Made by a program: the position numbers and the translations under genes. A stretch of DNA of 32,000 nucleotides from Thermofilum adornatum (GTDB taxonomy: Archaea; Thermoproteota; Thermoprotei; Thermofilales; Thermofilaceae): NCBI RefSeq assembly GCF_000446015.1, contig NC_022093.1, forward strand, positions 1,650,001 to 1,682,000, in the 5' to 3' direction. Below are positions 1 through 30,731 of the stretch, in pieces (the stretch's first letter is position 1; every line of letters begins with the position of its first letter). Under the pieces are notes generated by a model that made no database searches, was not told the origin of the DNA, and saw only the letters and a list, made by a program, of their open reading frames with translations.

Positions 1-111
1 AATACGAGCTGCATTTTTGGTTCGCGAAGTTTATTGCTGCAACTGAGAGGGGCAGGCAGGCTCTCAATAGGCCTGCTAGGGCGTTTAGGGTTTTGTACGG
101 GCTTGATTAGT

Positions 112-3075
112 ATGGCTCTAAGCCTTGTCCACGACGTTTTGGATCTTTATTCCCGGTATAACCCGATTCTGTATCTTGGCCTTCAGAGGGCTAGGCCTCC
201 CGTTTATCCTTATCTGCATCAAGCCGAGTTCCTTGCACGTACAATGGTTAGGGTGCCGGTCCGCGTGTTTGTTGCGGACGAGATAGGTCTCGGCAAGACT
301 GTTACAGCTATTTCGACTGCTAAGAGGCTTTCCGATCTGGGCCTTGCCAAGAGGGTTCTCATATTGGTTCCCCGGATACTTGTGAGGCAGTGGCTCCTAG
401 AGCTTGAACGCTTCGGTATAAGGGCCACAAGGATCGAGAGAGCGAACTTCCAGAGTCTTTCTTCGAGCGGTTTTCCAGAGGGTTTCTATGTCGCGTCGAT
501 GGATCTAGTTAAAAGGGAGAGGTACATGGATAAGATTCTAGGTGTTTCCTGGGACTTGCTTATTGTGGATGAGGCTCACAGGGTAGGCAAGTCATCTGCC
601 AAAAAAGAGACCCAGAGGTACAGGTTTGTCTCTAGGATTGCGGTCGACAAGTCCAAGCATATCCTTTTGCTTTCTGCTACGCCCCACCGTGGAGACCCTA
701 AGGACTATCTTTCCAGGCTTATGCTTTTGGACCCCTCCTTAACGACAGATTTTCAGAGGCTTGACAATGTGTTATTTTATAGTGCTACACAGAATGTGCT
801 GGTCTTTAGAAGAACAAAGCTCGACGTGAACAATGTCTATGAAGGTGAGAAGGTCTTTCCAGGGTGTAGTGTTTCAGCGGTGATTGTCCCTGCTACCCGT
901 GACGAGAGCGAGTTCCATAGGAGGCTTATAAGCTTCCTCAGGACGAAGATCCTCGACTACCATAATGTGAGTGGAACAGAGCCTAGGGCTCTTGGTCTTC
1001 TCAATGCTTTGATCTTTAAGAGGGCTTCATCGAGCCCGGCCGCTGCTATTAACACTATGCAGGTTATCCTCGAGAAGCGAGCATACTGGCTCCAAAATAG
1101 GGTTATTGCCGAGAAAGATTTAAGGAAAAGGATTAATCTTGCCAAGGCTCTACTCGGCACTGGTTTTGAGGAATATGAGGAAGATGTGGATCCAGACAAG
1201 GTTGTTGAAGAGTTTGCAGAAAGGTGCTCTATCCTGTTTTCTGAAAATGATGTAAGAGAGCTTCAGCATCTTGTCCAGCTCGCCAAGGCTTCGATGACTA
1301 ATGATAGCAGGCTGAAGGGCGTTGTTAGCATTGTTGAGCAACATGTAAGCATGGGCGACAAGGTAATCTTGTTTACAGAGTTTAAGGATACAGCTCACTA
1401 CGTGTTCGATGCTCTGGTGAAGGTTCTCGGCAGAGAAAACGTGAGGTTGCTCACTAGTGACGAGGCGGCCAGGGAAGAAGAGCTGATGTCGATACGTTCG
1501 TGGCTCGAGGAAAACGGGAAGAGAGTTCTAGTTGCAACTGACGTGGCATCTGAGGGCCTTAACCTCCAGGTTGCCAATGTCCTGATAAATTATGAGCCTC
1601 CCTGGTCCCCCATAAAACTGGAGCAGAGGATTGGGAGGGTTTGGAGGCTGGGTCAAAAGAAGGATGTAAATGTTTATACTGTTTTCCTTGCTGTCGACAG
1701 CGACAAGGATGTTCTAGACGTGTTGTACAAGAAGCTCGTTGCTATGGGGAGGGCTCTCGGGAAGCTCGAGAAGCCTCCAGTCGGAGAAGAGGCATACGTT
1801 ATCGACTTCGAGGAAAGGAGAGAGCCGCAACCTGTTACACTGTCTATTAAGAGTGGATCAAGGCTCAAAAAGGTAAGCGAGTACACACTTAGAAGGCAGT
1901 ACATCGAAAAGGGCAGAGAGGGCTTCGAGAGGCTCGTAGACTCTATTGCAAGAACTATACAGCAGCTCCAGAAGGATCTTGAAAAGGTTAGCGGTAGTAA
2001 GAGGCTTACACGTGAACAAATAATGCAGTTTATGGAGAAGACGACGGGATTCACTTCTTCTAAGGAGGCCTTGAGCTATGTGGCCAGACTCGTTGAAGCT
2101 ATTGGTAAAAGGTACCCGGACTTGGTGCAAAATAAGGATGGGAAAATCTATGTAAAGGCACCTGGAGGGGCCCTTGTTCCCCTTGACAAGGCACAGGAAG
2201 CTATTATCACCTTGTTGTCGAACATTGCTTCGCGCGAATCAAAGGCTAAAAGTGCTGTGCCAATAATAGTGTCGACGGGCGAGAGAGACCAGGAAGTAAG
2301 AATATATGTGGTAGGAATATCTTTTCGCGGCGGGCCCACTCTTTATAGGGAGCCTGTCGCCATTTCTGATGATGGAAGAATCTTTAGGGGCAAAGAGCTC
2401 TTAGAGATCCTGGCAAGGGCTATCGAAAACAAGTACTTTGATACAGTAGATACAGATGTCGAGAACCAGGTACCAGCAACAGACAAGCACATGTTGACAC
2501 TTCACATTCAGGGGCTCGCTAGAGATCTGGCAAATGACTATGAACGGTACAGGAGCCAAGTTGCCCAACAAAACCTGCTAAGGGAAAAGTCTCCTCAGAG
2601 ACTCATTGAAAGTCTAAGCATAGAGGAGCCAAGACTCATAGGAAAAATATTCTTCACCTCGAGAGCTTCACGTCTGTCAGAAGAGTCTCTAAGCCTGGAG
2701 GAGAAAGCCGAGATAGAAGCTGAAGCTATGCGTATCGCAATGGAACATGAGCGCCAGCAGGGCCGTGAACCCCTTGATGTACACGAAAGAGAGCACTACG
2801 ACATTTTGAGCCAAGACCCTGTGAGCGGCGAGGTGAGATACATAGAGGTAAAGGGGCACGCTGGACCCTCGCTGATGATCGAGCTTACTGAGGACGAGTA
2901 CCGTTTCGCCTCCCAGAACAGGGACAGGTATTGGATATACATTGTCAGGAATATTAAGCTTGGAAGACCCGAGCTGATACCTATAAGGGATCCTATTTCA
3001 AAGATAGATTTCCGGCCTGTTGGAGCCCTTAAGTTCGTTGGTGTTCCTAGGGGCGACTTGTATGGTACAAGTTGA
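112..3075 (+). CDS. SNF2/Rad54-family helicase with C-terminal DUF3883-like (PD-(D/E)xK fold) domain
   Basis: The ORF is open over 34..3075, with TTG at 34 and the first ATG at 112, so the start is uncertain. Motif I DEIGLGKT (GLGKT at 286-300), motif II DEAH (568-579), motif III LLLSATP and motif VI QRIGRVWRLGQ are present. The C-terminal ~100 aa read HYDILS...RYIEVKGH...LTEDEY...RYWIYIV (EVK at 2845-2853), which is typical of DUF3883. Confidence 0.85.
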   Translation: MALSLVHDVLDLYSRYNPILYLGLQRARPPVYPYLHQAEFLARTMVRVPVRVFVADEIGLGKTVTAISTAKRLSDLGLAKRVLILVPRILVRQWLLELERFGIRATRIERANFQSLSSSGFPEGFYVASMDLVKRERYMDKILGVSWDLLIVDEAHRVGKSSAKKETQRYRFVSRIAVDKSKHILLLSATPHRGDPKDYLSRLMLLDPSLTTDFQRLDNVLFYSATQNVLVFRRTKLDVNNVYEGEKVFPGCSVSAVIVPATRDESEFHRRLISFLRTKILDYHNVSGTEPRALGLLNALIFKRASSSPAAAINTMQVILEKRAYWLQNRVIAEKDLRKRINLAKALLGTGFEEYEEDVDPDKVVEEFAERCSILFSENDVRELQHLVQLAKASMTNDSRLKGVVSIVEQHVSMGDKVILFTEFKDTAHYVFDALVKVLGRENVRLLTSDEAAREEELMSIRSWLEENGKRVLVATDVASEGLNLQVANVLINYEPPWSPIKLEQRIGRVWRLGQKKDVNVYTVFLAVDSDKDVLDVLYKKLVAMGRALGKLEKPPVGEEAYVIDFEERREPQPVTLSIKSGSRLKKVSEYTLRRQYIEKGREGFERLVDSIARTIQQLQKDLEKVSGSKRLTREQIMQFMEKTTGFTSSKEALSYVARLVEAIGKRYPDLVQNKDGKIYVKAPGGALVPLDKAQEAIITLLSNIASRESKAKSAVPIIVSTGERDQEVRIYVVGISFRGGPTLYREPVAISDDGRIFRGKELLEILARAIENKYFDTVDTDVENQVPATDKHMLTLHIQGLARDLANDYERYRSQVAQQNLLREKSPQRLIESLSIEEPRLIGKIFFTSRASRLSEESLSLEEKAEIEAEAMRIAMEHERQQGREPLDVHEREHYDILSQDPVSGEVRYIEVKGHAGPSLMIELTEDEYRFASQNRDRYWIYIVRNIKLGRPELIPIRDPISKIDFRPVGALKFVGVPRGDLYGTS

Positions 3076-4312
3076 GGTCTTACAGGGCGACTCGGAGATT
3101 GGGGGCAACTGTATAAGGATACGGGACCGAGACAGGGTTCTCGTATTTGATCAAGGGCTAAGGTTTAAATGGCTAAAAAAGCTCTATGGCTATAGGCTTA
3201 GGCCCGCGGGGCCAGACGAGCTTAGAGAAGTTGGAGTTCTGCCGAGCAGGGACGAGCTAGCGGAGGCCGAGGCGCTCTACATAACCCACTTCCATTTTGA
3301 CCACTTGGGGCTTCTTGGCGATCTTCCGGACGAACTAGTCATAAAGGTGCCGTCTGTAGAGGCCTTAATGCTTATCAGTGAATGGTACGAAAATTCTCCC
3401 GACTGGACTGCATATGTTCCTCCGAGATACGCGGCGAAGATAGAAGAGTCGGAGCATAGAGTCGTAGATAAACGTGGTGTTATGGCTCTGCGTGTGCCTC
3501 ACAGCTCCTACCCCTCGGTTGCTTACCTCTATTTTGGGAGCGACGAGAACATACTTTATACTGGGGACTTCCGATTCGATAAACTCCAGGGAACCGCTCA
3601 GCTCTATCCACACACTCTTTTTGACTACTTTGAGGAGAACCCTGATATAAGGATTGACAAACTCATAGTTGAGGGTACAAACTTTGGCAGGCCAGTGTGG
3701 CCCCTATCCTGGGAAGACTCTCTACCATTGCTAAAGAAGATACTGTCTTCAAGGGTTCCACTATTTATAGCCCTCCACAGGCTCGAGTTCGACCTGTTTA
3801 TGGCCCTATATGCACTGCTTCGTGAGACAGGTCGAAGGGGTATTATCGCCTCGAAAAAACTCCTAGACGTTGTCGAGCTGTGGACTTCGCATCTCAACCT
3901 GGAGACGGAGGGAATATTCCGTGCGCCCACACTTGCCGAGAAGCCGTCCCTAGTCGAGCTTGCCGGCTACGATGATCTACGGAACCCCAGCGCATATACG
4001 GTAATCGCAGACCTCTTCGAGGTGGTAGACTTTGCTAGGGGGGCTGCAAGGGAGATAGAGCTCCAAGGGGGAATAGCCATCCTTATGATCTCCGAGCACG
4101 AGGCGGAAGAGGGGGTGGAAGAGGCCGTTGCGCTCGGCTGGCTCCGCCGCCTGGGGCTTCAGTCGTATAGGCTGAGGGTTTCTGGGCACTATTATCCCCA
4201 CGAGTTCGCTAGGCTTGTTGGGCTCGTCAAGCCGAGGGAGATAGTGCCGGTCCACACGGAGGAGCCGGAACTCATGCTTAGGGTTTTTGGAAAGGTTTCT
4301 CAAAGGGAGTAA
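3062..4312 (+). CDS. Metallo-beta-lactamase fold nuclease, beta-CASP/RNase J-like
   Basis: ATG at 3062 overlaps the helicase stop (3073-3075) by 14 nt. N-terminal GDSEIGGNCIRI, HxHxDH motif HFHFDH (3287-3304), LYTGDFRFD and C-terminal PVHTEEPE match the RNase J/CPSF-type MBL motif order. Confidence 0.7.
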   Translation: MVQVEVLQGDSEIGGNCIRIRDRDRVLVFDQGLRFKWLKKLYGYRLRPAGPDELREVGVLPSRDELAEAEALYITHFHFDHLGLLGDLPDELVIKVPSVEALMLISEWYENSPDWTAYVPPRYAAKIEESEHRVVDKRGVMALRVPHSSYPSVAYLYFGSDENILYTGDFRFDKLQGTAQLYPHTLFDYFEENPDIRIDKLIVEGTNFGRPVWPLSWEDSLPLLKKILSSRVPLFIALHRLEFDLFMALYALLRETGRRGIIASKKLLDVVELWTSHLNLETEGIFRAPTLAEKPSLVELAGYDDLRNPSAYTVIADLFEVVDFARGAAREIELQGGIAILMISEHEAEEGVEEAVALGWLRRLGLQSYRLRVSGHYYPHEFARLVGLVKPREIVPVHTEEPELMLRVFGKVSQRE

Positions 4313-4474
4313 GGAAAATGAGAGAACTTTTTCTCTTATCCTCTGTAAGTCTTCACTTTGTCATTTAATAGCGAGGTACGTAGCTATACTAGCAATATAT
4401 CAAAATAACTTTCAGTGTTATTTTAGAAAATTATCTTTACAATAATTACCTTGAGTAATTATGGTGGCAAAGTA

Positions 4475-5233
4475 ATGATAAAGGACAAATGTTACATCTA
4501 TGGATCTATACATATCTTGTTACCTCATCTTGAAAATGCATTGGACAAGGTGGATGTCGTTTTGCTTGAGGGTTTTTTAATACGGGAATGGGAGAAATTG
4601 GTGAGGAAAGATCCTGTGACAATAGTGTCTATTTTAGGCGTGCTTTTTTCGTTATTAGTTGAGAAGATAGCTTTTGGAATAGCAAGATGGTACTATAAGG
4701 TATTCCGTGGTATAGAGTTCAAGGGGGATATGTTCTCCGTGGCGACGCTGGCAAAGGAAAGAGGAAAAATAATTGAAAGAACAGATTCTGACTTTCATGA
4801 AGTATATGCTTTGAAAAAGAGTGTCTACGTGGAAGTTTTCACTGTTTTTATTTTATTTTTAGTGGGGATTCCATTGCTTGTATTGATCTTATTGACGCTA
4901 TTCATTGAAATTATAATCACAGCTAATGGTATTTTTTATTGGGAATATTTTATTCAAATTTTCCAAGTGGGGATCCAGTCTGGAATTTTAGTGATGATGC
5001 AACCGGAGCAAGCTTTCAAACTTGCTACTTTACTAGTTACAGGTGGCTTGCTTCTCAGCGGGCCGATTTTTGCCTACAGAACAATTGACATCCGTGATTC
5101 CAAGGTGGTGGAAAGAGCAACTGAATTGGTCAATTCTGGTAAAACTGTTCTAATAGTGAGAGGAAAGATGCATGTAAATGGCATAGTTAGGGAATTAGAA
5201 AAGAGGGGCATTTATTGCAAAGAGATTAACTAG
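4475..5233 (+). CDS. TraB/GumN-like membrane protein (tentative)
   Basis: AT-rich ORF, with ATG at 4475 and an in-frame TTG at 4451. N-terminal YIYGSIHIL...VDVVLLEG and C-terminal LIVRGKMHVNGIVRELEKRGIY resemble the TraB/GumN GTxH...GAGHLxG...G signature. There are several central TM helices. Confidence 0.45.
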   Translation: MIKDKCYIYGSIHILLPHLENALDKVDVVLLEGFLIREWEKLVRKDPVTIVSILGVLFSLLVEKIAFGIARWYYKVFRGIEFKGDMFSVATLAKERGKIIERTDSDFHEVYALKKSVYVEVFTVFILFLVGIPLLVLILLTLFIEIIITANGIFYWEYFIQIFQVGIQSGILVMMQPEQAFKLATLLVTGGLLLSGPIFAYRTIDIRDSKVVERATELVNSGKTVLIVRGKMHVNGIVRELEKRGIYCKEIN

Positions 5234-5329
5234 TTGTTGATGATTAGAGTCTTCTGCGCTAATAGCCTCGGACTGCCCTCCTAGTCCCCCGTAGGCAAAA
5301 ATCCTAAAAGATGCATACCGCCTGAAAAT

Positions 5330-5623
5330 TCAGAGATTATGCTTTTTGTATATTATTGCGAATCCTTTGACTCCTTGGAAGGAGGTTCCGAGTAAGAGGC
5401 TTGCCTTTGTGAGGCCTATGTTTGGGATGACTGCTGTGGCTTCGCCGTGGTTTTGCTGTATGTGGTCGAGGGCTTTTCCGAGCTCTGGTAGTTCTTGCTC
5501 GAAGTCGTCTATTGGGAGGTAGAAGATGCCCCACTGGTCGCCGTCGTAGACGTGCTTCATGTATGGAGGGTCTTTTCCCGTTTTGTCTGGGTCGCGGTTT
5601 TCGCTCGTTTTTTCCTTACTCAT
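5330..5623 (-). CDS. hypothetical protein
   Basis: 97-aa ATG-initiated ORF with a TATA-like box 20-35 nt upstream. I recognised no motif. Confidence 0.5.
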   Translation of the reverse strand: MSKEKTSENRDPDKTGKDPPYMKHVYDGDQWGIFYLPIDDFEQELPELGKALDHIQQNHGEATAVIPNIGLTKASLLLGTSFQGVKGFAIIYKKHNL

Positions 5624-5641
5624 ATGTTTCTATCTTTATCT

Positions 5642-5659
5642 CTTTATTTAAGTTTATAC
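5642..5659 (-). promoter_or_regulatory. TATA-like box for the 5330..5623 gene
   Basis: The minus-strand reading is gtataaacttaaataaag, centred about 24-32 nt upstream of the ATG at 5623. This is leaderless-type geometry. Confidence 0.4.
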
Positions 5660-5807
5660 GATTAATTGTTTGGCATGGTGATTTATCGAGGATCCGAGGT
5701 ATAGTTGCGACTTAGCTCGAGTTCTATTTTTTCATTTTCTGCGAGCTCATATTGCAGTATGGCTCCGCTTCTGCTAAAGTATCGCTTTACGTTAAGGTAG
5801 GTACATC

Positions 5808-5823
5808 TGCTTAGCGCGCGAAG
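5808..5823. repeat. GC-palindrome motif copy (ctgcTTAGCGCGCGaag)
   Basis: Direct reading. It lies in intergenic DNA upstream of vapBC-1. Confidence 0.6.
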
Positions 5824-6022
5824 AGTGGGGCGAGGCGTTCAACGTTCTTGACAGCAGGGTGGGCGAAAAGATACTCGGTCTTCTGGGGCTCAGTGTCTAG
5901 AGAGGACAAAGATACCAGTCTTTTGGGTACTGTGGTCTTTTTGAATAAGGGGGTCTGGTGTAAAAGTGGCTGTTTTGTGGCAAAAAGGCTTTTATGTCTT
6001 ATGGCATTATGTAATCAGTACC

Positions 6023-6298
6023 ATGATAAGGGCTAATATAAGTAAGGATCTTGAGAGAAGGTTTAGGGAACTTGCGATGAGGAGGTTTGGATACGGAAAG
6101 GGCTCTCTGCAAAAAGCAGTCGAGGAAGCTATTGCGCGGTGGGTTTCATGGGTGGAGGAAGAGAGCTTAAAGTTTGAAGGGGACCCCGTGGAGGCTATTG
6201 ACGGGATCCTTGCGGACCTTGATGTTGATTCGGTGGAGCTTCAGCATAGGCTTAAGGAGTTCTGGGCCTCAAAGGTGCTCAAGGATGTACCTGGTTGA
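6023..6298 (+). CDS. vapB: Ribbon-helix-helix (CopG/VapB-type) antitoxin
   Basis: The start MIRANISKDLERRFRELAMRRFGYGKGSLQKAVEEAIARWV fits an RHH pattern. It overlaps the downstream PIN gene by 14 nt. A TATA-like cttttatgtc lies at 5989-5998. Confidence 0.7.
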   Translation: MIRANISKDLERRFRELAMRRFGYGKGSLQKAVEEAIARWVSWVEEESLKFEGDPVEAIDGILADLDVDSVELQHRLKEFWASKVLKDVPG

Positions 6299-6707
6299 TA
6301 CGAACATCTTTCTCGAGGTCATGCTTTCCCGTAGGAGGAAGGACGAGTGCAAACTCTTTTTGAAGATGCTGAGGGACGGCGAAATATTGGGAACCGTGAC
6401 CGATTTCTCGGTTCACTCAATAATGGTGCTCTTGGACAGACTTAACAGGCCCGAGAAGCTGAAGACTTTTCTCCTGAGCTTGACCGGGTACAGGGGTCTA
6501 GCTGTGCACTATACGTCTATTGCGGAGGAGGTTAGAGCGGTGGAATTGGCGCGGGAGAAGAAACTGGACATAGATGATGCACTGCAGTACGCTGTTGCTC
6601 TCTCTATTGGTGCAGATGCCATAGTTTCATTCGACGAGGACTTCAGTAACTTGGAGATACCGAGGCTGGAGCCGGTCGAAATCATTGATAAAAGGAAGAG
6701 CCATTAG
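6285..6707 (+). CDS. vapC: PIN-domain toxin VapC
   Basis: MYLVDTNIFLEV..., DIDDALQY and SFDEDF supply the acidic PIN residues in the expected order. The ORF-track N-terminal extension (6174-6284) overlaps the antitoxin and shows no homology. Confidence 0.85.
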   Translation: MYLVDTNIFLEVMLSRRRKDECKLFLKMLRDGEILGTVTDFSVHSIMVLLDRLNRPEKLKTFLLSLTGYRGLAVHYTSIAEEVRAVELAREKKLDIDDALQYAVALSIGADAIVSFDEDFSNLEIPRLEPVEIIDKRKSH

Positions 6708-6876
6708 TGAATTGAAAGTACCTTTTCTTAGCAAGCTTGGGTACTCCTAGACCTGCAACATAAAATTTGTGGAAATATGGACATGCATCAAACGATTTGG
6801 AGAAAGTGACGGGCCTTTCCTCAAAGGCTTTTTGTTAAGGGCTGTCCATGCTGTCTTCTGCTGAATATTTGGGAGG

Positions 6877-6890
6877 CTTTGCACGCGCTT
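6877..6890. repeat. Degenerate GC-palindrome motif copy (ctttgcacGCGCTt)
   Basis: It shares the ctttgcac left flank with the copy at 8688-8710, but the core is shortened. Confidence 0.4.
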
Positions 6891-6954
6891 GTTGATGTTT
6901 CTCCTTGAAGATTTTACATAAAATATATTTGATTGGTTTTCAATTTTTATTGTT

Positions 6955-7725
6955 GTGGAGGAGGACGACGACTTTTGGGTGTCCTCCATAGAGTTGTATC
7001 CGAGGGCTTCACGTAGACGTAGAGTTGTAAAGGCTATAGTTGTTCTCCTCGTTATGGGTTTTCTGGTTTACCTCGGGCTTCTTTATTATTCTATGACGAA
7101 TGTTGAGGTGAGTGTTGATAGGGTTGGGTTCTCTAGTCCGGACCAGTTGCTGAACATTGTTGCTAGTCGCCGTCTCAGTATAGATGTTTATCTTAACGTG
7201 AAGGGTAGAGGTGTTTTGCCTGTAGATGTGAAGAGTTTTTCTTCGGATATTTATCTCGAGGGGCAATATGTTGGCTTCGTGAAGAGTTCCCAGCCGTTCA
7301 CTATCGAGCCGGGGGAGTCCCGTCCTGTGCACTTGGTTTTGACTCTAGATGCTTCCTCTATATCGGCCGAAAGCCTGGCAAGCGTGTTGCAGTCGGTTAT
7401 TGACCACAACGGCGAGGTCATGGTTGCGCTTGATGGTAAGGTTGAGGTTTCGGCTTTGTTTTTCTCTCTAGACGTTCCAGTGAGACGTGAGACATATGTC
7501 TTGATTGCTCCTCCTTCTCCTAGGGTCGAACAAGCAGTTTGGAGTAAAACTTCGTGTAAAGCTGGGGAAAGTGTCGATTTTCAGGTGGTGGTGAGCAATG
7601 TTTACAGATCCCAGCGCCTTACTGGAACCTTAGAGGTTGCTGTACGGGAGGACGTTGCGCTTAGCCAAGACAGGGATGCCTCTGTATACACCTATCAACT
7701 TGATCTCGCTCCCGGAGAAAATTAG
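6955..7725 (+). CDS. Membrane-anchored LEA_2/LEA14-like beta-sandwich protein, 5' part of a gene interrupted by an in-frame TAG
   Basis: GTG start at 6955, followed by a basic stretch RRRR and a TM helix. The pattern VEVSVDRVGF...IDVYLNVKGRGVLPVDVKSFSSDIYLEGQYVG resembles LEA14. The ORF ends at TAG 7723-7725 in the middle of a repeat module. Confidence 0.6.
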   Translation: MEEDDDFWVSSIELYPRASRRRRVVKAIVVLLVMGFLVYLGLLYYSMTNVEVSVDRVGFSSPDQLLNIVASRRLSIDVYLNVKGRGVLPVDVKSFSSDIYLEGQYVGFVKSSQPFTIEPGESRPVHLVLTLDASSISAESLASVLQSVIDHNGEVMVALDGKVEVSALFFSLDVPVRRETYVLIAPPSPRVEQAVWSKTSCKAGESVDFQVVVSNVYRSQRLTGTLEVAVREDVALSQDRDASVYTYQLDLAPGEN

Positions 7726-7851
7726 ACGCTTAAAGGCACGTTTAAGACTTATGCAGGAATAGGTACGAGGGGATTCTTTCTGAAGGTTTTCTGGGACGGT
7801 AGAGTTATTAGCGAGCAGCCTCCCTTATATCCTCCTAGGCTACAGGTCATT

Positions 7852-9701: not shown

Positions 9702-10103
9702 ATGTACCTGTTTGATGCCAGTGCTATAGTCAACTTAGCTAAGCGGGGCTTACTCAAGCCGCTAGGAGAGGGTTTAAGCCTTGACCTTGCAGTGTACGAG
9801 GCGCTTAACGCGGTGTGGAAGGAGCATGTGTTGCAGAAAAGGATAGATGCAGATACTGCTAGAGGCCTCGTAGAAATCTTGATGGGTGCGTTAAACGTGG
9901 TTCCCTTAGAGAGTATTAAAGGAGTTGAGATGGAGGTGTATGAGTTGGCATCGAGGGAGAGGCTAACAGTGTATGATGCCTCTTATCTATACATTGCGCG
10001 CAGAGATAAGTTAACTTTAGTATCCGATGATGATAAGCTTCTTTCGAAGGCTTCACGCTACGTGGGAACAGCTAGAACAATGAATATTTTGAAGCGGTTC
10101 TAA
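9702..10103 (+). CDS. vapC: PIN-domain toxin VapC
   Basis: MYLFDASAIVNL..., LTVYDASYLYIA and LVSDDDKL fit the PIN pattern. It is a paralog of 13520..13933. Confidence 0.85.
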   Translation: MYLFDASAIVNLAKRGLLKPLGEGLSLDLAVYEALNAVWKEHVLQKRIDADTARGLVEILMGALNVVPLESIKGVEMEVYELASRERLTVYDASYLYIARRDKLTLVSDDDKLLSKASRYVGTARTMNILKRF

Positions 10104-10206: not shown

Positions 10207-10536
10207 TTAGAGTATAAGCATTAGGATGGGTAGTCCTAGGGCTAGGTAGGCGATGAAGTATATGATTCCGAATATTAGTCCTAGCTTCCAGTAGTCGGAG
10301 CCCTTGATGTATCCGCTTCCGTAGTAGACTGGGGCTGGTCCCGTCGCGTATGGGGATATTATGCCCGTTAGTCTAAGCGTGTATGCGAGGCTGTATGCTG
10401 CAAGCGCGGGGGGTATGCCGTGCTGGATTAGTGTCTTTAGGAATATTGGGTAGAGTGCTGTAGTGTGTGTGGTCAGGCTCGCGAAGAGATAGTGTAGCCA
10501 GTAGAAGTTCCCGAGACATTGTAGGGAGTGAAACAT
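10207..10536 (-). pseudogene. C-terminal remnant of a DASS/anion-permease family transporter
   Basis: HYLFASLTTHTTALYPIFL...ISPYATGPAPVYYGSGYIKGSDYWKLG matches only the last ~110 aa of ~450-aa anion permeases. An in-frame stop sits immediately upstream of the Met codon. Confidence 0.55.
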
Positions 10537-10694: not shown

Positions 10695-12050
10695 TTAGCC
10701 TCTACAGGCGACACATGAACCATTATCTTGGCGAGTGTGAAGTGTAGATGTGAGGCTCAAGGAGCTTGCTGGGGCACTCCCTGCAACGTCTAGGGATGGA
10801 TCCTGGCTTGCAGAAACACAGTCAAAGTACGCGACCACGTATACTTCGTCTATGTATAGCCAGCTCCTGTAATATTGGTCGCTATACGTGTGCAGTAAGA
10901 AACTGAGAGTTATCGTGGAGCCTGCAACCCCACTGAAAAACGTGCTATTCCTCTGCCAGCCAGTGTCCCTGAATGGGCCATAATTGTTTCCCGAGTTGGG
11001 GTTGTATCCGTTCTTCCAGTAGAAGGTTGTTGTGCCCTTGCTAAGAGAAAGAGTAATATAGTCGTAGTTTGCAGAGTCCCACGTCAAGAAGCGCCACCAG
11101 AAAGTCGCATTTACATATTTCACTTCGACGCCGTCAATGCTCGACGGCACACTAATGGAACGCCTGAGATAATCGTCCCTCGCTGGAACTGGTTCACAGG
11201 TCACCTGGTTCCCGAAGCCTATCCATGCCAGCCATGACCCCGCCACGGGTCTAGTTGTATCTGTAATCGTTCGGGGAGTTGGTGTTCTTGTGTAGCATGT
11301 CTCAGTGACTGTTACATCATAGTTTTTCTGTTCTACATATGCATAGGTTGTACTTGTCCAGCCCGCCAATGTTCCACTTTCGAACCCGTCGTAGAAGAGG
11401 ACTACTCTGGGCGGAGTGGGGAGGGTCTTGACTATCCATACTATTTTTTGGCGTGCCTTTGCCGTGGAGTAGTTGAAGTATAGCCACGTATATATACGGG
11501 CCACCTCGACGCCTAGCGGTGCTCCAGAGCCGACAGCCACCTGTAGGCTTAGGCTTGTTTGTCCGCTTATGGTGACGGGTGTCCCTGTCTGCTGGGTTAT
11601 TGTGCCCCTGGACACTACTACCTGTAGGTTGGCTCCGAGGGTTATAGAGGCATTTAGCTGGCCAGCATAGCTACCGGAAACACTCTCAGCGAAAAGCTTA
11701 GCAGAAACACCAGAACCACTAACGTTAAGCACAGGGCTAAAAGTTGCCCTGTGACACCTTGGAACTGACACCTCAACGTATGTAACATTTAAGCCGTCCT
11801 CGATACTCGAATATACTCTACCAGACTTAACGCCGTAGGCTGGGTTCCCAAGGTCCCTACCGGCAATTTTCTTTACGGGCGGCTGGGTCGCCTGGACGTG
11901 CCACTCATTTACATTCGTTATAGTGATTGCCGCTAAAGCGCCTACACATAAAAGCACAGCAAGCAGGAGCGCCTCAATCCTCCTCACGCCTAGCCACCCG
12001 GGAAGCTTGAAAAGCTCGCGGCCATGCTCCTTATCTCTGCCAGCGGGCAC
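10695..12050 (-). CDS. hypothetical secreted/cell-surface protein
   Basis: GTG start with an N-terminal hydrophobic anchor (RRIEALLLAVLLCVGALAAITI). The rest is Ser/Thr/Val-rich beta-type sequence containing an FYDGFESGTLAGW module. It overlaps the upstream protease gene by 20 nt. Confidence 0.6.
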   Translation of the reverse strand: MPAGRDKEHGRELFKLPGWLGVRRIEALLLAVLLCVGALAAITITNVNEWHVQATQPPVKKIAGRDLGNPAYGVKSGRVYSSIEDGLNVTYVEVSVPRCHRATFSPVLNVSGSGVSAKLFAESVSGSYAGQLNASITLGANLQVVVSRGTITQQTGTPVTISGQTSLSLQVAVGSGAPLGVEVARIYTWLYFNYSTAKARQKIVWIVKTLPTPPRVVLFYDGFESGTLAGWTSTTYAYVEQKNYDVTVTETCYTRTPTPRTITDTTRPVAGSWLAWIGFGNQVTCEPVPARDDYLRRSISVPSSIDGVEVKYVNATFWWRFLTWDSANYDYITLSLSKGTTTFYWKNGYNPNSGNNYGPFRDTGWQRNSTFFSGVAGSTITLSFLLHTYSDQYYRSWLYIDEVYVVAYFDCVSASQDPSLDVAGSAPASSLSLTSTLHTRQDNGSCVACRG

Positions 12051-12906
12051 GCGCTGGTTCTTGTCTTGTGGGGTAGAATGGGACTGGTGGTCGTGGGAGG
12101 TACTCTATTCCTGGTCTTTGCTGTATGGCTTGTGGGTATAGTTGCATGAGTGTATAGATTTCTGGCGGGATGTTTGTGTTTATGTTTAGTCCTAGCTGTT
12201 TTGCCTGGTCGGCTGTTATTGGGTAGTCGTGGGTGTATCTGCCTTCTGTGAGGGTTCTGGCTATTTCTCTTGCTTTTTCTTGGGGCATCTTGTCAGCGAG
12301 TAGGGAGACTATGAAGTCTTGTATCTCGTTTATTGCTTTTTCGGCTACGTCTGCTAGGATTAGGAATTCTTCTTTTGCCTGTTCGCCTTTGAGCTTTGCG
12401 ACTTTTACTAGGCTTGGTGCCGGGTAAGCGGTGTTGCCCACGGGTATCTGTGGGTCTAGGGGTCCCAGGACAGCGTTGGGGTCCATGATTATCTCGTCTG
12501 CCGCTAGGGCTATCAGGGTTCCCCCGCTCATAGCATAGTGTGGAATTATGACTATCTTCTTGGCTGGGTGCCGTTTGAGCGCCATTGCTATCTGTGACGC
12601 TGCTAGGACTAGTCCGCCCGGCGTGTGTAGTATGAGTGCTATCGGCTGGTTGGGCGGGGTTGTCCTGATAGCCCTTATGACTGCCTCTGAGTCTTCTATG
12701 TCTATGTATCTGTAGAGCGGGAAGCCTAGGAAGCCTATTTTTTCTTGTCTATGTATGAGAGTGATGACTCTCCAGCCGTACTTCTTCTCTATTGCCTGTA
12801 TAAGCTTCAGCCTTGCCCTGGTCAAAGCGTTCATCTGTAGCTGTGGATGGAAGACAATGTAAAGGAGGAGGATATAGAACAAAAGGCTCATTATATCTAT
12901 ATCCAT
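12031..12906 (-). CDS. SDH-family (ClpP-class) membrane serine protease
   Basis: N-terminal TM helix, followed by LILHTPGGLVLAASQIA...IIPHYAMSGGTLIALAADEIIMDPNAVLGPLDPQ. This is characteristic of the serine dehydrogenase proteinase/ClpP-fold family. Confidence 0.8.
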   Translation of the reverse strand: MDIDIMSLLFYILLLYIVFHPQLQMNALTRARLKLIQAIEKKYGWRVITLIHRQEKIGFLGFPLYRYIDIEDSEAVIRAIRTTPPNQPIALILHTPGGLVLAASQIAMALKRHPAKKIVIIPHYAMSGGTLIALAADEIIMDPNAVLGPLDPQIPVGNTAYPAPSLVKVAKLKGEQAKEEFLILADVAEKAINEIQDFIVSLLADKMPQEKAREIARTLTEGRYTHDYPITADQAKQLGLNINTNIPPEIYTLMQLYPQAIQQRPGIEYLPRPPVPFYPTRQEPARARWQR

Positions 12907-13295: not shown

Positions 13296-13520
13296 GTGTC
13301 TACTGAAGTGCTATCTGTTAGGGTCAGGAGAGAGCTTAAGGAGGAAGCTTTGAGGCTGGGAATCGATGTTAGGAGTGTTATTGAGAGGGCTCTCGAGGAG
13401 GAGGTAAGAAAGGCGAAGAAGGAGAAGTTCAGGGAGTTGCTCGAGGAAGCCCTAAAGGGTTGCGACATAACGGTTGAAGAATGGGTTAGGGCAGTAAAGG
13501 AAACTAGGAGGGAACATTAA
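13296..13520 (+). CDS. vapB: VapB-type antitoxin
   Basis: LSVRVRRELKEEALRLGIDVRSVIERALEEEVRK is a paralog of 9463..9699. Its stop overlaps the PIN start (TAATG). Confidence 0.75.
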   Translation: MSTEVLSVRVRRELKEEALRLGIDVRSVIERALEEEVRKAKKEKFRELLEEALKGCDITVEEWVRAVKETRREH

Positions 13521-13933
13521 TGGTTGAGTACCTGCTTGACGCCTCTGCACTTTATCCACTCATGTTGAAGATGAAGGATAAGCTTTTCGACTACTTAAAT
13601 CTCTTTGTAGTGCTGGATCTGACAGTATATGAGATTGGCAACGTGATTTGGAAGGAGAGTCGGGTAGGCAGGGTTAGGGCTCCTAAGGCTTTAGCGATAG
13701 CATTCGCAGAGGTATTTAGGGAAGTTAAGGTTGTCAGATTGAGGGACGAGGAAACAGCGGACGTCTTAGAGCTGGCTTTGGCGGAGGAAATAACCTTCTA
13801 TGATGCGGCTTACCTGTACGCAGCTAGAAAGCTCCGCTTAAGGCTTGTGACCGAGGACTCGGATTTGAAAAAGTACCCAGAATCTGTAGGCTTAGAAGAG
13901 CTCGTTGCAGGGCTAGAGCGTTCGAGGCGTTAG
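13520..13933 (+). CDS. vapC: PIN-domain toxin VapC
   Basis: MVEYLLDASALYPL, ITFYDAAYLYAA and LVTEDSDL fit the PIN pattern. Confidence 0.85.
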   Translation: MVEYLLDASALYPLMLKMKDKLFDYLNLFVVLDLTVYEIGNVIWKESRVGRVRAPKALAIAFAEVFREVKVVRLRDEETADVLELALAEEITFYDAAYLYAARKLRLRLVTEDSDLKKYPESVGLEELVAGLERSRR

Positions 13934-14177: not shown

Positions 14178-14544
14178 CTACAGGACCCTAACCAGCTTTG
14201 CTCCTTCCAGGAGTGAGAGCTCCTCCTTTGTAAGCAGGTGTATCTCGAAGGGGTACCACCATGGCTCGCCCTTCTCCTCCATCAATCTCCATAGCCTGCT
14301 CAGTAGCCTGGATTTTCTCCCGCGATGTTCTAGGAGGCTCTTCTAGGACTATTGCGATGTCCACATCGCTGTCAACCGTGAGCTTGCCCTCTACCGCCGA
14401 GCCGAATACGTAGACCTCTGCACCCTTCCCAAAGACGGTTTTAACAGCTTCTACGAGTATTTCCAGGTAGTCCCTCCACTTTAAGAGCTCGCGGAGCTTC
14501 CACGTCTGTATCTCGATGGCTAGATCCTCCCTAGGAAAAGACAT
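14178..14544 (-). pseudogene. Minimal nucleotidyltransferase (MNT, pol-beta superfamily), frameshifted
   Basis: It carries the GS...DxD motif YVFGSAVEGKLTVDSDVDIAIV. After about codon 75 the canonical C-terminus SRLLSRLWRLMEEKGEPWWYPFEIHLLTKEELSLLEGAKLVRVL* continues in the +1 frame and stops at 14178-14180. The switch maps to a T4 run at 14313-14316. Confidence 0.7.
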
Positions 14545-14580
14545 TGTCCTCAATCGCCTCTAATATCTTAAAAAGATTTT

Positions 14581-14900: not shown

Positions 14901-14928
14901 TCTCCTCTCCGTAGCTTTTTTGGCACTT

Positions 14929-15741
14929 ATGAGTCAAGAAAAAGTCGTTCACATTGTTACCGTGGGGACGAGCATTGTTAGGAATATAGCGCAAAATGTT
15001 TCTGGACAAAGCGTCTCTAGCGAGGTTTTAGAGAAATTCAAGAGGTGGGCTCAGGCTTCTCCCAGGAGCAGAGAGGACGCTGAAGCTGGTGAGAGGGCTT
15101 GTAGCGGCTGCGAGGAGTTCGAGGCTGGGCTGAGGATTCTTGCCAGCAAGCCGTATGAGGTGAGCGCTGAGCTTAACGCTATGAGGTCTTACCTGGAGGA
15201 GGGAATGGTCGACGCCGTTGTGCTTCTTTCGTCTGATACTGGTGTGTCTGAGTTCTCTGCGAAGATTCTTGAGGCTTATCTCTCCTCGGAGGGGAAACTT
15301 GTAGAAACAATTAGGGTGCCGGGCCTCGGCCTGGACTTTCAGGAGGGTCTGATTAACCTGGTGGACACAGTTGCAAGCGTTGTGGCAAGGTATAGAGGTC
15401 TGGGTTATAGGGCATGGATAAACCTTACGGGGGGCTTCAAGCTGGAGGCGGCTGTCCTGTATCTCGTCTCCTGTCTGTCTAGGCTGGGCGTCGAGAAGGC
15501 CTACTATATACATGAGGCCATGAGGAGCACTGTGGAGGTCCCAGCTATACCTGTAAAGCTTGAGGACTCCCTGCTGAGAACTGTCGAGCGGCTAGGCGAT
15601 CAAGAGGTCGAACTAGAGGAGGCACGTAAAAGGATAGGCGAAGAGATGCTAGATGTCCTCCTTAGGAGTGGGCTTGTCGAAAGGAGTGGCACAACTGTGA
15701 GGATAAGGAAGTGGGTATTGCACTTGGTGAGAGGCTTCTAG
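14929..15741 (+). CDS. CARF-domain protein (Cas_APE2256-like) with C-terminal winged-helix domain
   Basis: N-terminal HIVTVGTSIVRN, SAELN and NLTGGFK (15421-15441) are CARF/APE2256-family hallmarks. The C-terminal ~60 aa (MLDVLLRSGLVERSGTTVRIRKW) look like a wHTH. An in-frame TTG lies at 14920. Confidence 0.75.
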   Translation: MSQEKVVHIVTVGTSIVRNIAQNVSGQSVSSEVLEKFKRWAQASPRSREDAEAGERACSGCEEFEAGLRILASKPYEVSAELNAMRSYLEEGMVDAVVLLSSDTGVSEFSAKILEAYLSSEGKLVETIRVPGLGLDFQEGLINLVDTVASVVARYRGLGYRAWINLTGGFKLEAAVLYLVSCLSRLGVEKAYYIHEAMRSTVEVPAIPVKLEDSLLRTVERLGDQEVELEEARKRIGEEMLDVLLRSGLVERSGTTVRIRKWVLHLVRGF

Positions 15742-30013: not shown

Positions 30014-30301
30014 ATGAGTGAGAAAGTGAAAACAAGCCTGTTTATAAATCGAGCTCTATGGGAGGAGTTTAAGCTCAAAGTAGGAAGCCGTGTTGGGCTG
30101 AGAGCTTTGAGCAGAGCTGTGGAAGAACTTCTAGAAGATGAGGTTGCCGAGTTAGTGGTAGCAGATGAGCTCTCAAAAATGGTAGAGACCTCATCACTCA
30201 TTGAAGTCAAGCCTGTAAAGCCCAAGGTTCCCACTGACGCCAGCAAGGCTATAAGGGAGCTGAGGGAGAGAGAAAATGAAAAACCCAATAGTGTACCTTG
30301 A
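30014..30301 (+). CDS. vapB: RHH-type antitoxin (VapB-like)
   Basis: MSEKVKTSLFINRALWEEFKLKV...LSRAVEELLEDEV fits an RHH pattern. It overlaps the downstream PIN gene by 26 nt. A TATA-like tttttatac lies at 29979-29987. The ORF-track N-terminal extension (29843-30013) is unsupported. Confidence 0.6.
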   Translation: MSEKVKTSLFINRALWEEFKLKVGSRVGLRALSRAVEELLEDEVAELVVADELSKMVETSSLIEVKPVKPKVPTDASKAIRELRERENEKPNSVP

Positions 30302-30731
30302 TTCCAGCACAATCGTTAAACGTTACGTAGAAGAAGCTGGTAGCGAGGTTGCCCGCGATGTATACAACTCAGCATTGGCTGGCAACCTAACTCTTTCGTT
30401 TTCAGCCTGGAATATTGGGGAGGTGCTGGGGGTTCTAGAGAGGTATCGAAGAAGAGCGTGGTTGGACGATGAAAGCTATGTAGCTGCAAGGATGATGTTT
30501 ATCGGAGAAACTATAAGATTGTTGAAGCTTGGAGCTTTGATCCTTGTGCCTATCCGAGTTAGACTGCTCGCAGAGGCTTGGAGGCTCCAAGAAAAATACC
30601 ACATTTACCAGGCTGATGCACTTCAAGTGGTTTCAGCCAAGTACGTAAAGGCGAACAAGATGTATACGGGGGACAGGAGTCTGCATAATGTAGCTCTTGC
30701 AGAAGGGCTTCAGAGTGTCATACTTAAGTGA
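30276..30731 (+). CDS. vapC: PIN-domain toxin VapC
   Basis: VYLDSSTIVKRYVEEAGSE, YHIYQADALQV and MYTGDRSL fit the PIN pattern. Confidence 0.8.
   Translation: MKNPIVYLDSSTIVKRYVEEAGSEVARDVYNSALAGNLTLSFSAWNIGEVLGVLERYRRRAWLDDESYVAARMMFIGETIRLLKLGALILVPIRVRLLAEAWRLQEKYHIYQADALQVVSAKYVKANKMYTGDRSLHNVALAEGLQSVILK

Follow-up and report, generated by a model that had tools for sequence, protein, structure and literature searches.

In this study we followed up the left edge of a 32,000-nucleotide stretch of the Thermofilum adornatum genome (NCBI RefSeq assembly GCF_000446015.1, contig NC_022093.1, positions 1,650,001 to 1,682,000, forward strand; hereafter the window, whose own numbering is used unless a contig or locus is named). 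Here a gene for a SNF2 helicase fused to a nuclease domain is followed by a gene for a metallo-beta-lactamase (MBL) protein of the beta-CASP type. An earlier note on this DNA, made from the sequence alone, had taken the two genes for a coupled two-gene unit and had guessed at a defence module. They are instead the last two genes of a five-gene operon, inside which the window boundary falls, and the guess at defence was a good one: the operon is of the Hma kind, also called Type-1 BREX-related (BR; BREX, bacteriophage exclusion). The locus thus has a place in a known anti-phage family and is therefore no longer an unknown system. Its helicase-nuclease and the operon as such were already known; the variant, which has a dedicated RNase J-like nuclease and a protein of 140 amino acids (aa) and is without the Tudor and HEPN parts, is new. 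We propose that this is an antiviral operon in which the beta-CASP protein would serve as a second effector directed at RNA, and we give this statement as a whole a probability of roughly 0.45. Membership of the operon and a role in defence are well supported and, in our view, highly probable; the weak step is RNA as the substrate of the beta-CASP protein, on which we see the chances as evenly balanced.

Background to the system

The system was first noted as a restriction-modification (R-M)-like one, in which a SNF2 helicase is fused to DUF3883, 'a novel REase domain' (REase, restriction endonuclease), and accompanied by a HEPN-DUF499 ATPase (PMC3710099). The archaeal operon has been described as COG1743->DUF499->SWI2/SNF2 helicase-nuclease(->EVE) (PMC7641849). 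The name Hma was given by PADLOC (PMC8565338), and in 2026 Hma was renamed the Type-1 BR system (PMC12839542). HmaA of Halomonas protects E. coli against T4 and requires its NOV_C nickase to do so; the catalytic residues mutated in that protein were D1084, E1104, K1106 and E1121, and in vitro the nuclease domain on its own does no more than nick supercoiled DNA (PMC11232893). A HEPN domain is fused to DUF499 in more than half of the bacterial taxa that have Type-1 BR (PMC12839542), and RNases are well known as attachments of R-M-like systems (PMC3710099, PMC12839542). The auxiliary nucleases given in Hma/BR surveys are of the PD-(D/E)xK, HNH, HKD, TOPRIM/OLD, HEPN, PIN and Schlafen types, and Hma operons often hold embedded, unrelated defence genes (bioRxiv 10.1101/2024.01.29.577857).

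We found no mention of an MBL or beta-CASP component in the main texts and text supplements of the Hma/BR literature, whose neighbourhood spreadsheets were covered in part, and a full-text literature search for beta-CASP together with defence returned type VII CRISPR only. The remark in the earlier note that its author knew of no described system with this pairing must accordingly be divided: the helicase-nuclease and its operon had been described, and the MBL partner apparently had not. The RNase J-like nuclease appears to be the only part of the operon that is undescribed.

A five-gene operon cut by the window boundary

The gene order of the operon is DUF1156 N6-adenine methyltransferase, DUF499 AAA+ ATPase, 140-aa protein, helicase-nuclease and MBL protein. 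The window opens in the third of these genes: its positions 3-107 are the tail of the small gene, translated in frame 3 as YELHFWFAKFIAATERGRQALNRPARAFRVLYGLD, which aligns with the C-termini of small open reading frames (ORFs) at three homologous loci (L004, L007 and L001). The small gene stops at 108-110 and, after a single base, the helicase starts with the ATG at 112 (Table 1). The genes further upstream were read by proxy from a contig with 96.8% nucleotide identity to window positions 1-4245 (L009, WYEB01000579.1), in which a DUF1156-type methyltransferase (408-3452), a DUF499-type ATPase (3412-6630), the 140-aa gene (6627-7049), the helicase and the MBL gene run in one direction. The same order recurs in Stygiolobus azoricus (L001), in Ignisphaera aggregans DSM 17230 (L088), in the Thermofilum-like JGI contigs L004 and L007, and in the further contigs L089 and L091.

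The operon resembles Hma in its SNF2 helicase with a C-terminal NOV_C nuclease and in its co-directional genes for a DUF1156 methyltransferase and a DUF499 ATPase. All three PADLOC profiles, HmaA, HmaB and HmaC, find their match: on the upstream proteins, HmaB matched the L004 methyltransferase at 3.9e-50 and HmaC the DUF499 ATPase at 6.2e-48, and Pfam places the upstream ATPase genes of the homologous loci in DUF499. Further likenesses are the candidate nuclease residues D/E/K/E, which are kept, the patchy, horizontally transferred distribution and the embedded defence genes. Unlike in many bacterial Hma/BR systems, DUF499 is here without a HEPN fusion; no N-terminal HEPN extension was found in the DUF499 proteins of these operons. 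Unlike Hma, the operon also has two extra conserved genes, those for the 140-aa and the beta-CASP proteins, the former of which was not looked for in the Hma/BR papers.

A small ORF lies between the DUF499 and helicase genes in 39 of 47 loci. Besides L009 and the window tail, genes for the ~140-aa protein are placed at 6960-7382 in L004 and 8750-9187 in L001, and the encoded proteins share a C-terminal motif, (W/F)W...R.A.AF..L. They have no match in Pfam or PADLOC. A profile search recovered the family as standalone proteins of 128-147 aa only, mostly from thermophilic archaea and from a few bacterial metagenome-assembled genomes (MAGs). The idea that the 140-aa protein is the detached N-terminal (Tudor) domain of HmaA is unsupported by this search of limited sensitivity, which found nothing other than standalone proteins. 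A second small ORF in L004, L007 and L059 was considered as a separate family and rejected, being the split-off C-terminus of DUF499: there the last ~110 aa of DUF499 form an ORF of their own (L004 6608-6958, L007 6287-6655, L059 2500-2886), by a split or a frameshift. At L091 the DUF499 (4177-7598) and MBL (11067-12351) genes are each broken into two ORFs, which suggests decay.

At the other end, a T-rich tract, TTTTTCTCTT, follows 16 nt past the MBL stop codon. It is a possible archaeal transcription stop and, as read from the sequence, likely the 3' end of the operon; genes 3' of MBL vary among homologous loci. An EVE-domain gene adjoins the methyltransferase gene at the Ignisphaera aggregans locus (L088 594-1046, minus strand) and on one Thermofilum-like contig (L007 1-226), matching the published association of EVE with this operon in archaea.

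The helicase-nuclease

The helicase ORF opens at position 34 (TTG), and homologues align from the ATG at 112, giving a protein of 987 aa. Pfam finds SNF2-rel_dom at residues 53-221 (1.4e-16), Helicase_C at 408-514 (1.4e-19) and NOV_C/DUF3883 at 868-948 (5e-20). The domain calls of the earlier note, a full SNF2 core, a DUF3883 PD-(D/E)xK module and an RNase J-like beta-CASP protein, were thereby upheld by Pfam and Foldseek, with E-values for helicase and MBL protein well outside chance expectation; on re-reading, its positions for GLGKT, DEAH, EVK, HFHFDH and the ATG at 3062, and the 14-nt overlap of the two genes, all proved correct. Full-length helicase homologues share 37-62% identity and have an identical Pfam architecture throughout. 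Among 24 homologues, G59-T63, D153/E154/H156 and Q505-Q515 of the SNF2 core are invariant, as is E929 of NOV_C, and D897, E912 and K914 are at least 90% conserved. The 17 residues from E912 to E929 equal the spacing of E1104 and E1121 in Halomonas HmaA, the correspondence of residues between the two proteins resting on motif and spacing, not on an alignment of the one with the other. The helicase-nuclease is thus a known kind of protein, because it matches HmaA and the described operon and because its candidate catalytic residues are conserved.

The window protein differs from Hma at its N-terminus. Only ~35 residues precede the SNF2 core, positions 1-103 of the PADLOC HmaA profile are unmatched, and the protein is ~190 aa shorter than that profile, being without the ~100-aa N-terminal (Tudor) part. 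A Tudor domain at this end belongs to the Type-1 BR architecture, in which the middle region of the helicase has been described as an inactive REase with an alpha+beta domain (PMC12839542). In the window protein the middle region is without a Pfam match, and hhalign found no similarity between it and the profile of the C-terminal nuclease. An AlphaFold model of residues 545-987 (mean predicted local distance difference test, pLDDT, 78) has a mixed alpha/beta middle region; its weak Foldseek matches to Hjc resolvases and other PD-(D/E)xK structures (E 0.06-0.3, probability up to 0.99, and 0.97-0.99 for the Hjc resolvases) do not distinguish the middle from the C-terminal domain.

The SNF2 core is also similar to those of DISARM DrmD and BREX type-3 BrxHII. 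PADLOC matched the window helicase to DrmD at 7e-68, slightly higher than to HmaA (1.5e-63), and to BrxHII at 8.7e-56. Identity with DrmD was rejected on the curated NCBIfam model NF038317, which gave 260 against a cut-off of 610, and DrmD, unlike the window helicase, is without NOV_C (PMC11232893). A DISARM identity was likewise rejected on the partner genes; these are DUF1156 and DUF499, not DrmA/DrmB (DUF1998)/DrmC as in DISARM or PglZ/BrxC as in BREX.

An RNase J-like beta-CASP protein

The MBL gene encodes a protein of 416 aa. Pfam matched Lactamase_B (5.6e-08) and, at 19.9 bits, RMMBL, below the cut-off of 21.6; no PADLOC profile matched. Invariant in 36 family members are D30, H76xH78xD80H81, H147, D169, E204 (EGTN), H376 (SGH) and H398, so that motif C is an invariant His. 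Pfam RMMBL was matched by 15 of these 36 members at E <= 0.01, and DRMBL by none. An AlphaFold model of high confidence (pLDDT 94, predicted template modelling score 0.93) was compared with the PDB by Foldseek, and the best 38 matches were RNase J enzymes or EF2904 (2az4), an uncharacterised protein that we group with RNase J from sequence and fold; E-values went down to 3e-21, and CPSF73 came next. A profile of the family against PDB sequences gave a like order, with 2az4 at 2e-25, archaeal RNase J at 4e-20, Artemis/Apollo at ~1e-6 in an alignment confined to the N-terminal MBL region (residues 69-186) and CPSF-type chains (CPSF73) at ~1e-4 in a compared set without an aCPSF2 reference.

By its motifs and predicted fold, then, the protein is RNase J-like. 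With mpy-RNase J of Methanolobus psychrophilus (PDB 5ws2) it shares the two-domain MBL and beta-CASP fold (TM-score 0.70-0.75), and the metal-binding and beta-CASP motifs of RNase J are all present: HS.YP (motif 3), EGTN (A), SGH (B) and P.HTE (C). At ~416 aa it has the size of archaeal RNase J and, like it, is without the bacterial C-terminal domain, terminating directly past motif C. It is unlike RNase J in that identity reaches only 16-22%, that NCBIfam TIGR00649 gave 44.5 bits against a cut-off of 400, and that its gene lies in a defence operon rather than a housekeeping one. Scoring so far under the curated threshold, the protein is therefore not classed as RNase J. Thermoproteota are not known to have aRNase J.

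Two other classes were considered and rejected. The SNM1/Artemis/Apollo class fails on DRMBL (0/36), on the motif C His and on the N-terminal extent of the alignment. Against the housekeeping aCPSF1/aCPSF2 class stand the absence of a Pfam match to KH, a feature of aCPSF1, in the 416 residues, the closely related strains that are without the gene, its confinement to the defence operon, and the score of ~1e-4 for CPSF-type chains (no aCPSF2 reference being compared). The protein thus falls outside the standard archaeal housekeeping groups, in none of which the earlier note had been able to place it. A further comparison is Cas14, a beta-CASP RNase acting in type VII CRISPR defence, a mostly archaeal immune system (PMC12669027). 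Unlike Cas14, the MBL protein is without a Cas10-like C-terminal domain, its gene lies in a context free of cas5, cas7 and CRISPR, and it has been recruited by an R-M-like rather than an RNA-guided system. Cas14 was absent from its top structural (Foldseek) and sequence (PDB profile) matches.

Table 1. Features of the operon 3' end in the window (all positions are window positions).
Feature	Position	Strand	Details
3' end of ~140-aa small gene ('SM2')	3..110	+	last 35 codons and TAG stop; frame 3 reads YELHFWFAKFIAATERGRQALNRPARAFRVLYGLD*
HmaA-type helicase-nuclease gene	112..3075	+	SNF2 core, middle region, C-terminal NOV_C/DUF3883 PD-(D/E)xK nuclease; 987 aa; stop TGA 3073-3075
SNF2 ATPase core	217..1653	+	residues ~36-514; GLGKT 286-300, DEAH 568-579, motif VI QRIGRVWRLGQ
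Helicase middle region	1744..2676	+	residues ~545-855; no Pfam match
NOV_C/DUF3883 PD-(D/E)xK nuclease domain	2713..2955	+	residues 868-948; candidate catalytic D897, E912-V-K914 (EVK 2845-2853), E929
MBL/beta-CASP nuclease gene	3062..4312	+	416 aa, RNase J-like; 14-nt overlap with helicase 3' end; start ATG 3062, stop TAA 4310-4312; HFHFDH 3287-3304
T-rich tract	4328..4337	+	TTTTTCTCTT; possible transcription stop

Linkage of the MBL gene to the operon

Scanning metagenomes with the MBL alignment as anchor yielded 80 loci, which were annotated with phmmer. Where at least 500 nt of upstream sequence was available, the helicase lies directly upstream of the MBL gene on the same strand in 56 of 66 loci, and methyltransferase, ATPase and helicase are all present in 24 of the 25 loci with at least 9 kb upstream. 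Loci without an adjacent helicase are mostly truncated stubs, insertions or more distant relatives. In the called genes of other loci the spacing between helicase and MBL ranges from a 4-nt overlap to a 10-nt gap. The tight coupling of the pair that the earlier note had seen in the overlap of 14 nt is real and extends to most loci, and a lack of conserved linkage, which the note had named as grounds for giving up its idea, is not what these loci present. The distance matrices of helicase and MBL across 42 loci are correlated at r = 0.97 (Mantel p = 0.001); the corresponding values are 0.97 for helicase and ATPase and 0.95 for helicase and methyltransferase, and MBL co-diverges with helicase, ATPase and methyltransferase at r = 0.91-0.97.

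Among helicase-anchored loci, MBL is present in five (L001, L004, L088, L089 and L091, the last frameshifted) and absent in two (the near-identical pair L005/L006, and L090). A profile search of 1.84 billion representative proteins found a core of ~25 clusters at 320 bits or more, then a drop to 248 bits and a tail of a few hundred distant relatives, with 312 proteins in total at E <= 1e-30. Of the outgroups, P0087 lies in a Prim-Pol/HTH mobile-element-like region without a helicase link, and P0259 has no helicase nearby. The locus counts, the co-divergence and the outgroups in other contexts together make MBL a dedicated, frequent and non-universal fifth gene of the operon.

A more distant relative of the MBL protein (32% identity, 448 aa) was seen at L083 (1929-9679), after a 935-aa methyltransferase-like protein, a 931-aa protein without a Pfam match and a 235-aa protein. 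The same type of nuclease may here have been taken up by a second operon of the R-M-like kind.

Distribution and mobility

The MBL-carrying variant occurs mainly in thermophilic archaea. MBL proteins with the MAG labels Korarchaeum, Bathyarchaeia, Methanomethylicaceae and Thermosphaera share 74-87% mutual identity, which implies recent transfer across phyla. One locus (L042) lies on a 295-kb contig, and its 140-aa protein is labelled candidate division WOR-3 bacterium.

Closely related strains are without the operon. The DNA of L076, L079, L002 and the contig end of L058 matches the window only from ~3992 (or ~3835) onward; a 3' MBL stub of 100-150 codons is retained and the rest of the operon is absent. 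A scan of genome contigs with the single MBL protein gave two partial remnants only (L002 and L003), both of them strain variants with a 3' MBL stub. Its absence from closely related strains shows that this is no core housekeeping locus, whereas a locus of that sort was what the earlier note had named as fatal to its own proposal. At L076 and L079 the DNA upstream of the MBL stub encodes a different N6/N4 DNA methylase, and the recurrent breakpoint inside the MBL gene points to a hotspot at which modification or defence cassettes are swapped. In the locus that stands in place of the Hma operon at L076, a TGT (queuine tRNA-ribosyltransferase)-like gene (4539-5537) was observed within a few kb of the DNA methylase; it may be related to 7-deazaguanine DNA modification.

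At L071, where the operon is otherwise normal, helicase and MBL are separated by an insertion (4340-7845) that encodes a 483-aa protein without known function and a Piwi-domain (Argonaute-like) protein of 682 aa, which fits the published embedding of defence genes in Hma. Neighbours at other loci include EVE, Csx1/CARF, RE_AccI and Eco57I-type genes.

Proposed mechanism and alternative explanations

In the mechanism that we propose, the methyltransferase would mark host DNA, as its family suggests, and the DUF499 ATPase, which is ORC/Cdc6-like, would sense or scan for unmarked invader DNA. The SNF2 motor would then translocate on the unmarked DNA, and the NOV_C nuclease would nick or cut it; nicking and protection against T4 are known for Halomonas HmaA only. 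The beta-CASP protein, whose synthesis is presumably tied to that of the helicase by the overlap of stop and start codons, would be the second nuclease effector, a 5'-3' exo/endo-ribonuclease that destroys the transcripts of the invader and perhaps those of the host. By analogy, its job would be that of the HEPN RNase fused to many bacterial DUF499 proteins and of Cas14 in type VII CRISPR. We favour RNA as the substrate because the nearest structures are all RNase J, motif C is a His and the family matches RMMBL without DRMBL, and also because DUF499 is here without HEPN, RNases on R-M-like systems are established and Cas14 provides a precedent. The defence role is supported by the strains without the operon, the cross-phylum identity, the Piwi insertion at L071, the defence neighbours and the published anti-phage data for HmaA.

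Several points weigh against this proposal. The activities of the proteins of this operon variant are predictions from sequence and models, and the window itself is without a methyltransferase or ATPase gene, both having been placed upstream of it through the 96.8%-identical contig. Operons without MBL exist (L005/L006, L090), and MBL is therefore not essential to the core system; the co-divergence of helicase and MBL may in part be plain co-inheritance. Bacterial systems have their HEPN RNase at the ATPase, but here it is the DNA motor to which the MBL gene is coupled. The RNA reading also leans on a rule of the beta-CASP literature, by which motif C is a His in enzymes that act on RNA and a Val in those that act on DNA. 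A nick made by a PD-(D/E)xK nuclease leaves a 5'-phosphate, the end preferred by RNase J-type exonucleases, and this fits resection of DNA equally. Lastly, the sugar specificity of beta-CASP RNases is relaxed, and CPSF73 cuts single-stranded DNA (PMC7491329).

The main and strong rival takes up these last points. It keeps the operon and lets the beta-CASP protein act on DNA, where it would load at the 5'-phosphate ends of nicks and resect the invader 5'-3', so that nicks become lethal gaps, a nick-and-resect machine comparable to the SNM1A/Apollo-type beta-CASP exonucleases. We regard this as a serious possibility, though one short of even odds. Helicase and MBL genes overlap or adjoin each other in most loci, and since the isolated HmaA nuclease domain merely nicks in vitro (PMC11232893), a partner exonuclease would make sense. 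That beta-CASP RNases can act on single-stranded DNA (PMC7491329) also speaks for it, as does the crystal of T. thermophilus RNase J with bound 2'-O-methyl RNA (PMC4652760), which we take as a hint that 2'-OH contacts are dispensable for binding. However, the close structural and sequence relatives of the protein are all RNases, motif C is a His, the family matches RMMBL and never DRMBL, and Artemis and Apollo match no more than the N-terminal MBL part, at ~1e-6.

It is much less probable that the MBL gene is self-sufficient, serving independently in defence or as a toxin, and hitch-hikes at the 3' end of the Hma operon with no functional tie to the helicase. The frequent embedding of unrelated defence genes in Hma operons (bioRxiv 10.1101/2024.01.29.577857), the Piwi-domain pair at L071, the operons without MBL and the distant relative at L083, beside a different methyltransferase-like gene, would all suit such a hitch-hiker. 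The core MBL family, however, is almost never away from the helicase (56/66 adjacent, the exceptions being mostly stubs or insertions), it co-diverges with helicase, ATPase and methyltransferase (r = 0.91-0.97), and its position and orientation are fixed, with overlapping stop and start codons. Least probable, and by our estimate very improbable, is a housekeeping module for RNA decay or DNA repair, in which an orthologue of aRNase J or aCPSF2 would work with a helicase as aRNase J does with ASH-Ski2. The RNase J-like fold agrees with it, and helicases are known partners of RNase J enzymes (PMC7144898). Yet closely related strains do without the operon, its occurrence across phyla is patchy although distant lineages are 74-87% identical, and the MBL gene sits in an operon of methyltransferase, ATPase and nuclease genes. 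The NCBIfam RNase J score (44.5 against 400) also speaks against a housekeeping enzyme, as does the helicase, which joins a SNF2 DNA translocase to a DNase fold and is no RNA helicase.

A bolder extension, which we consider doubtful, is that the beta-CASP and 140-aa proteins are obligate subunits of the helicase-nuclease and define a distinct thermophile subtype of Hma/BR. A translocase-nickase would there be physically coupled to a processive 5'-3' beta-CASP exonuclease that destroys either DNA (nick-and-resect) or RNA (co-transcriptionally), and the MBL family would be a fourth, defence-dedicated lineage of archaeal beta-CASP proteins beside aCPSF1, aCPSF2 and aRNase J.

Genomic neighbourhood in the window

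The earlier note had set the pair at the edge of a region packed with toxin-antitoxin (TA) and CARF genes. These genes are real: four PIN-domain (VapC-like) genes lie at 5966-6707, 9702-10103, 13520-13933 and 30276-30731, and an MNT-type nucleotidyltransferase (14188-14553, minus strand) and a Cas_APE2256/CARF-family protein (14920-15741) complete the list. They are loosely spread, however, and mixed with housekeeping genes, among them an oligopeptide ABC transporter at 16.4-22.7 kb, an SDH-type protease, phosphoglucomutase, RpiB and a family-2 glycosyltransferase. The neighbourhood is thus a loose, TA-rich region and no dense defence island. At 10207-10536 on the minus strand, a 109-aa ORF matches the Na+/sulfate symporter family (PF00939, 3e-24) over the final ~90 family positions only and looks like a gene fragment.

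Implications

To conclude, the finding points to a component that is absent from existing surveys of Hma and BREX-related systems. Should the RNase J-like protein prove to be a true subunit, it would, by our literature search, be the second beta-CASP enzyme after Cas14 to have been recruited to prokaryotic immunity, and crenarchaeal lineages would gain an RNase J-like enzyme with a role outside housekeeping. The operon supplies a thermostable set of helicase, nickase and exonuclease for biochemistry, and it offers a concrete way of testing if an RNase arm is needed in R-M-like systems.

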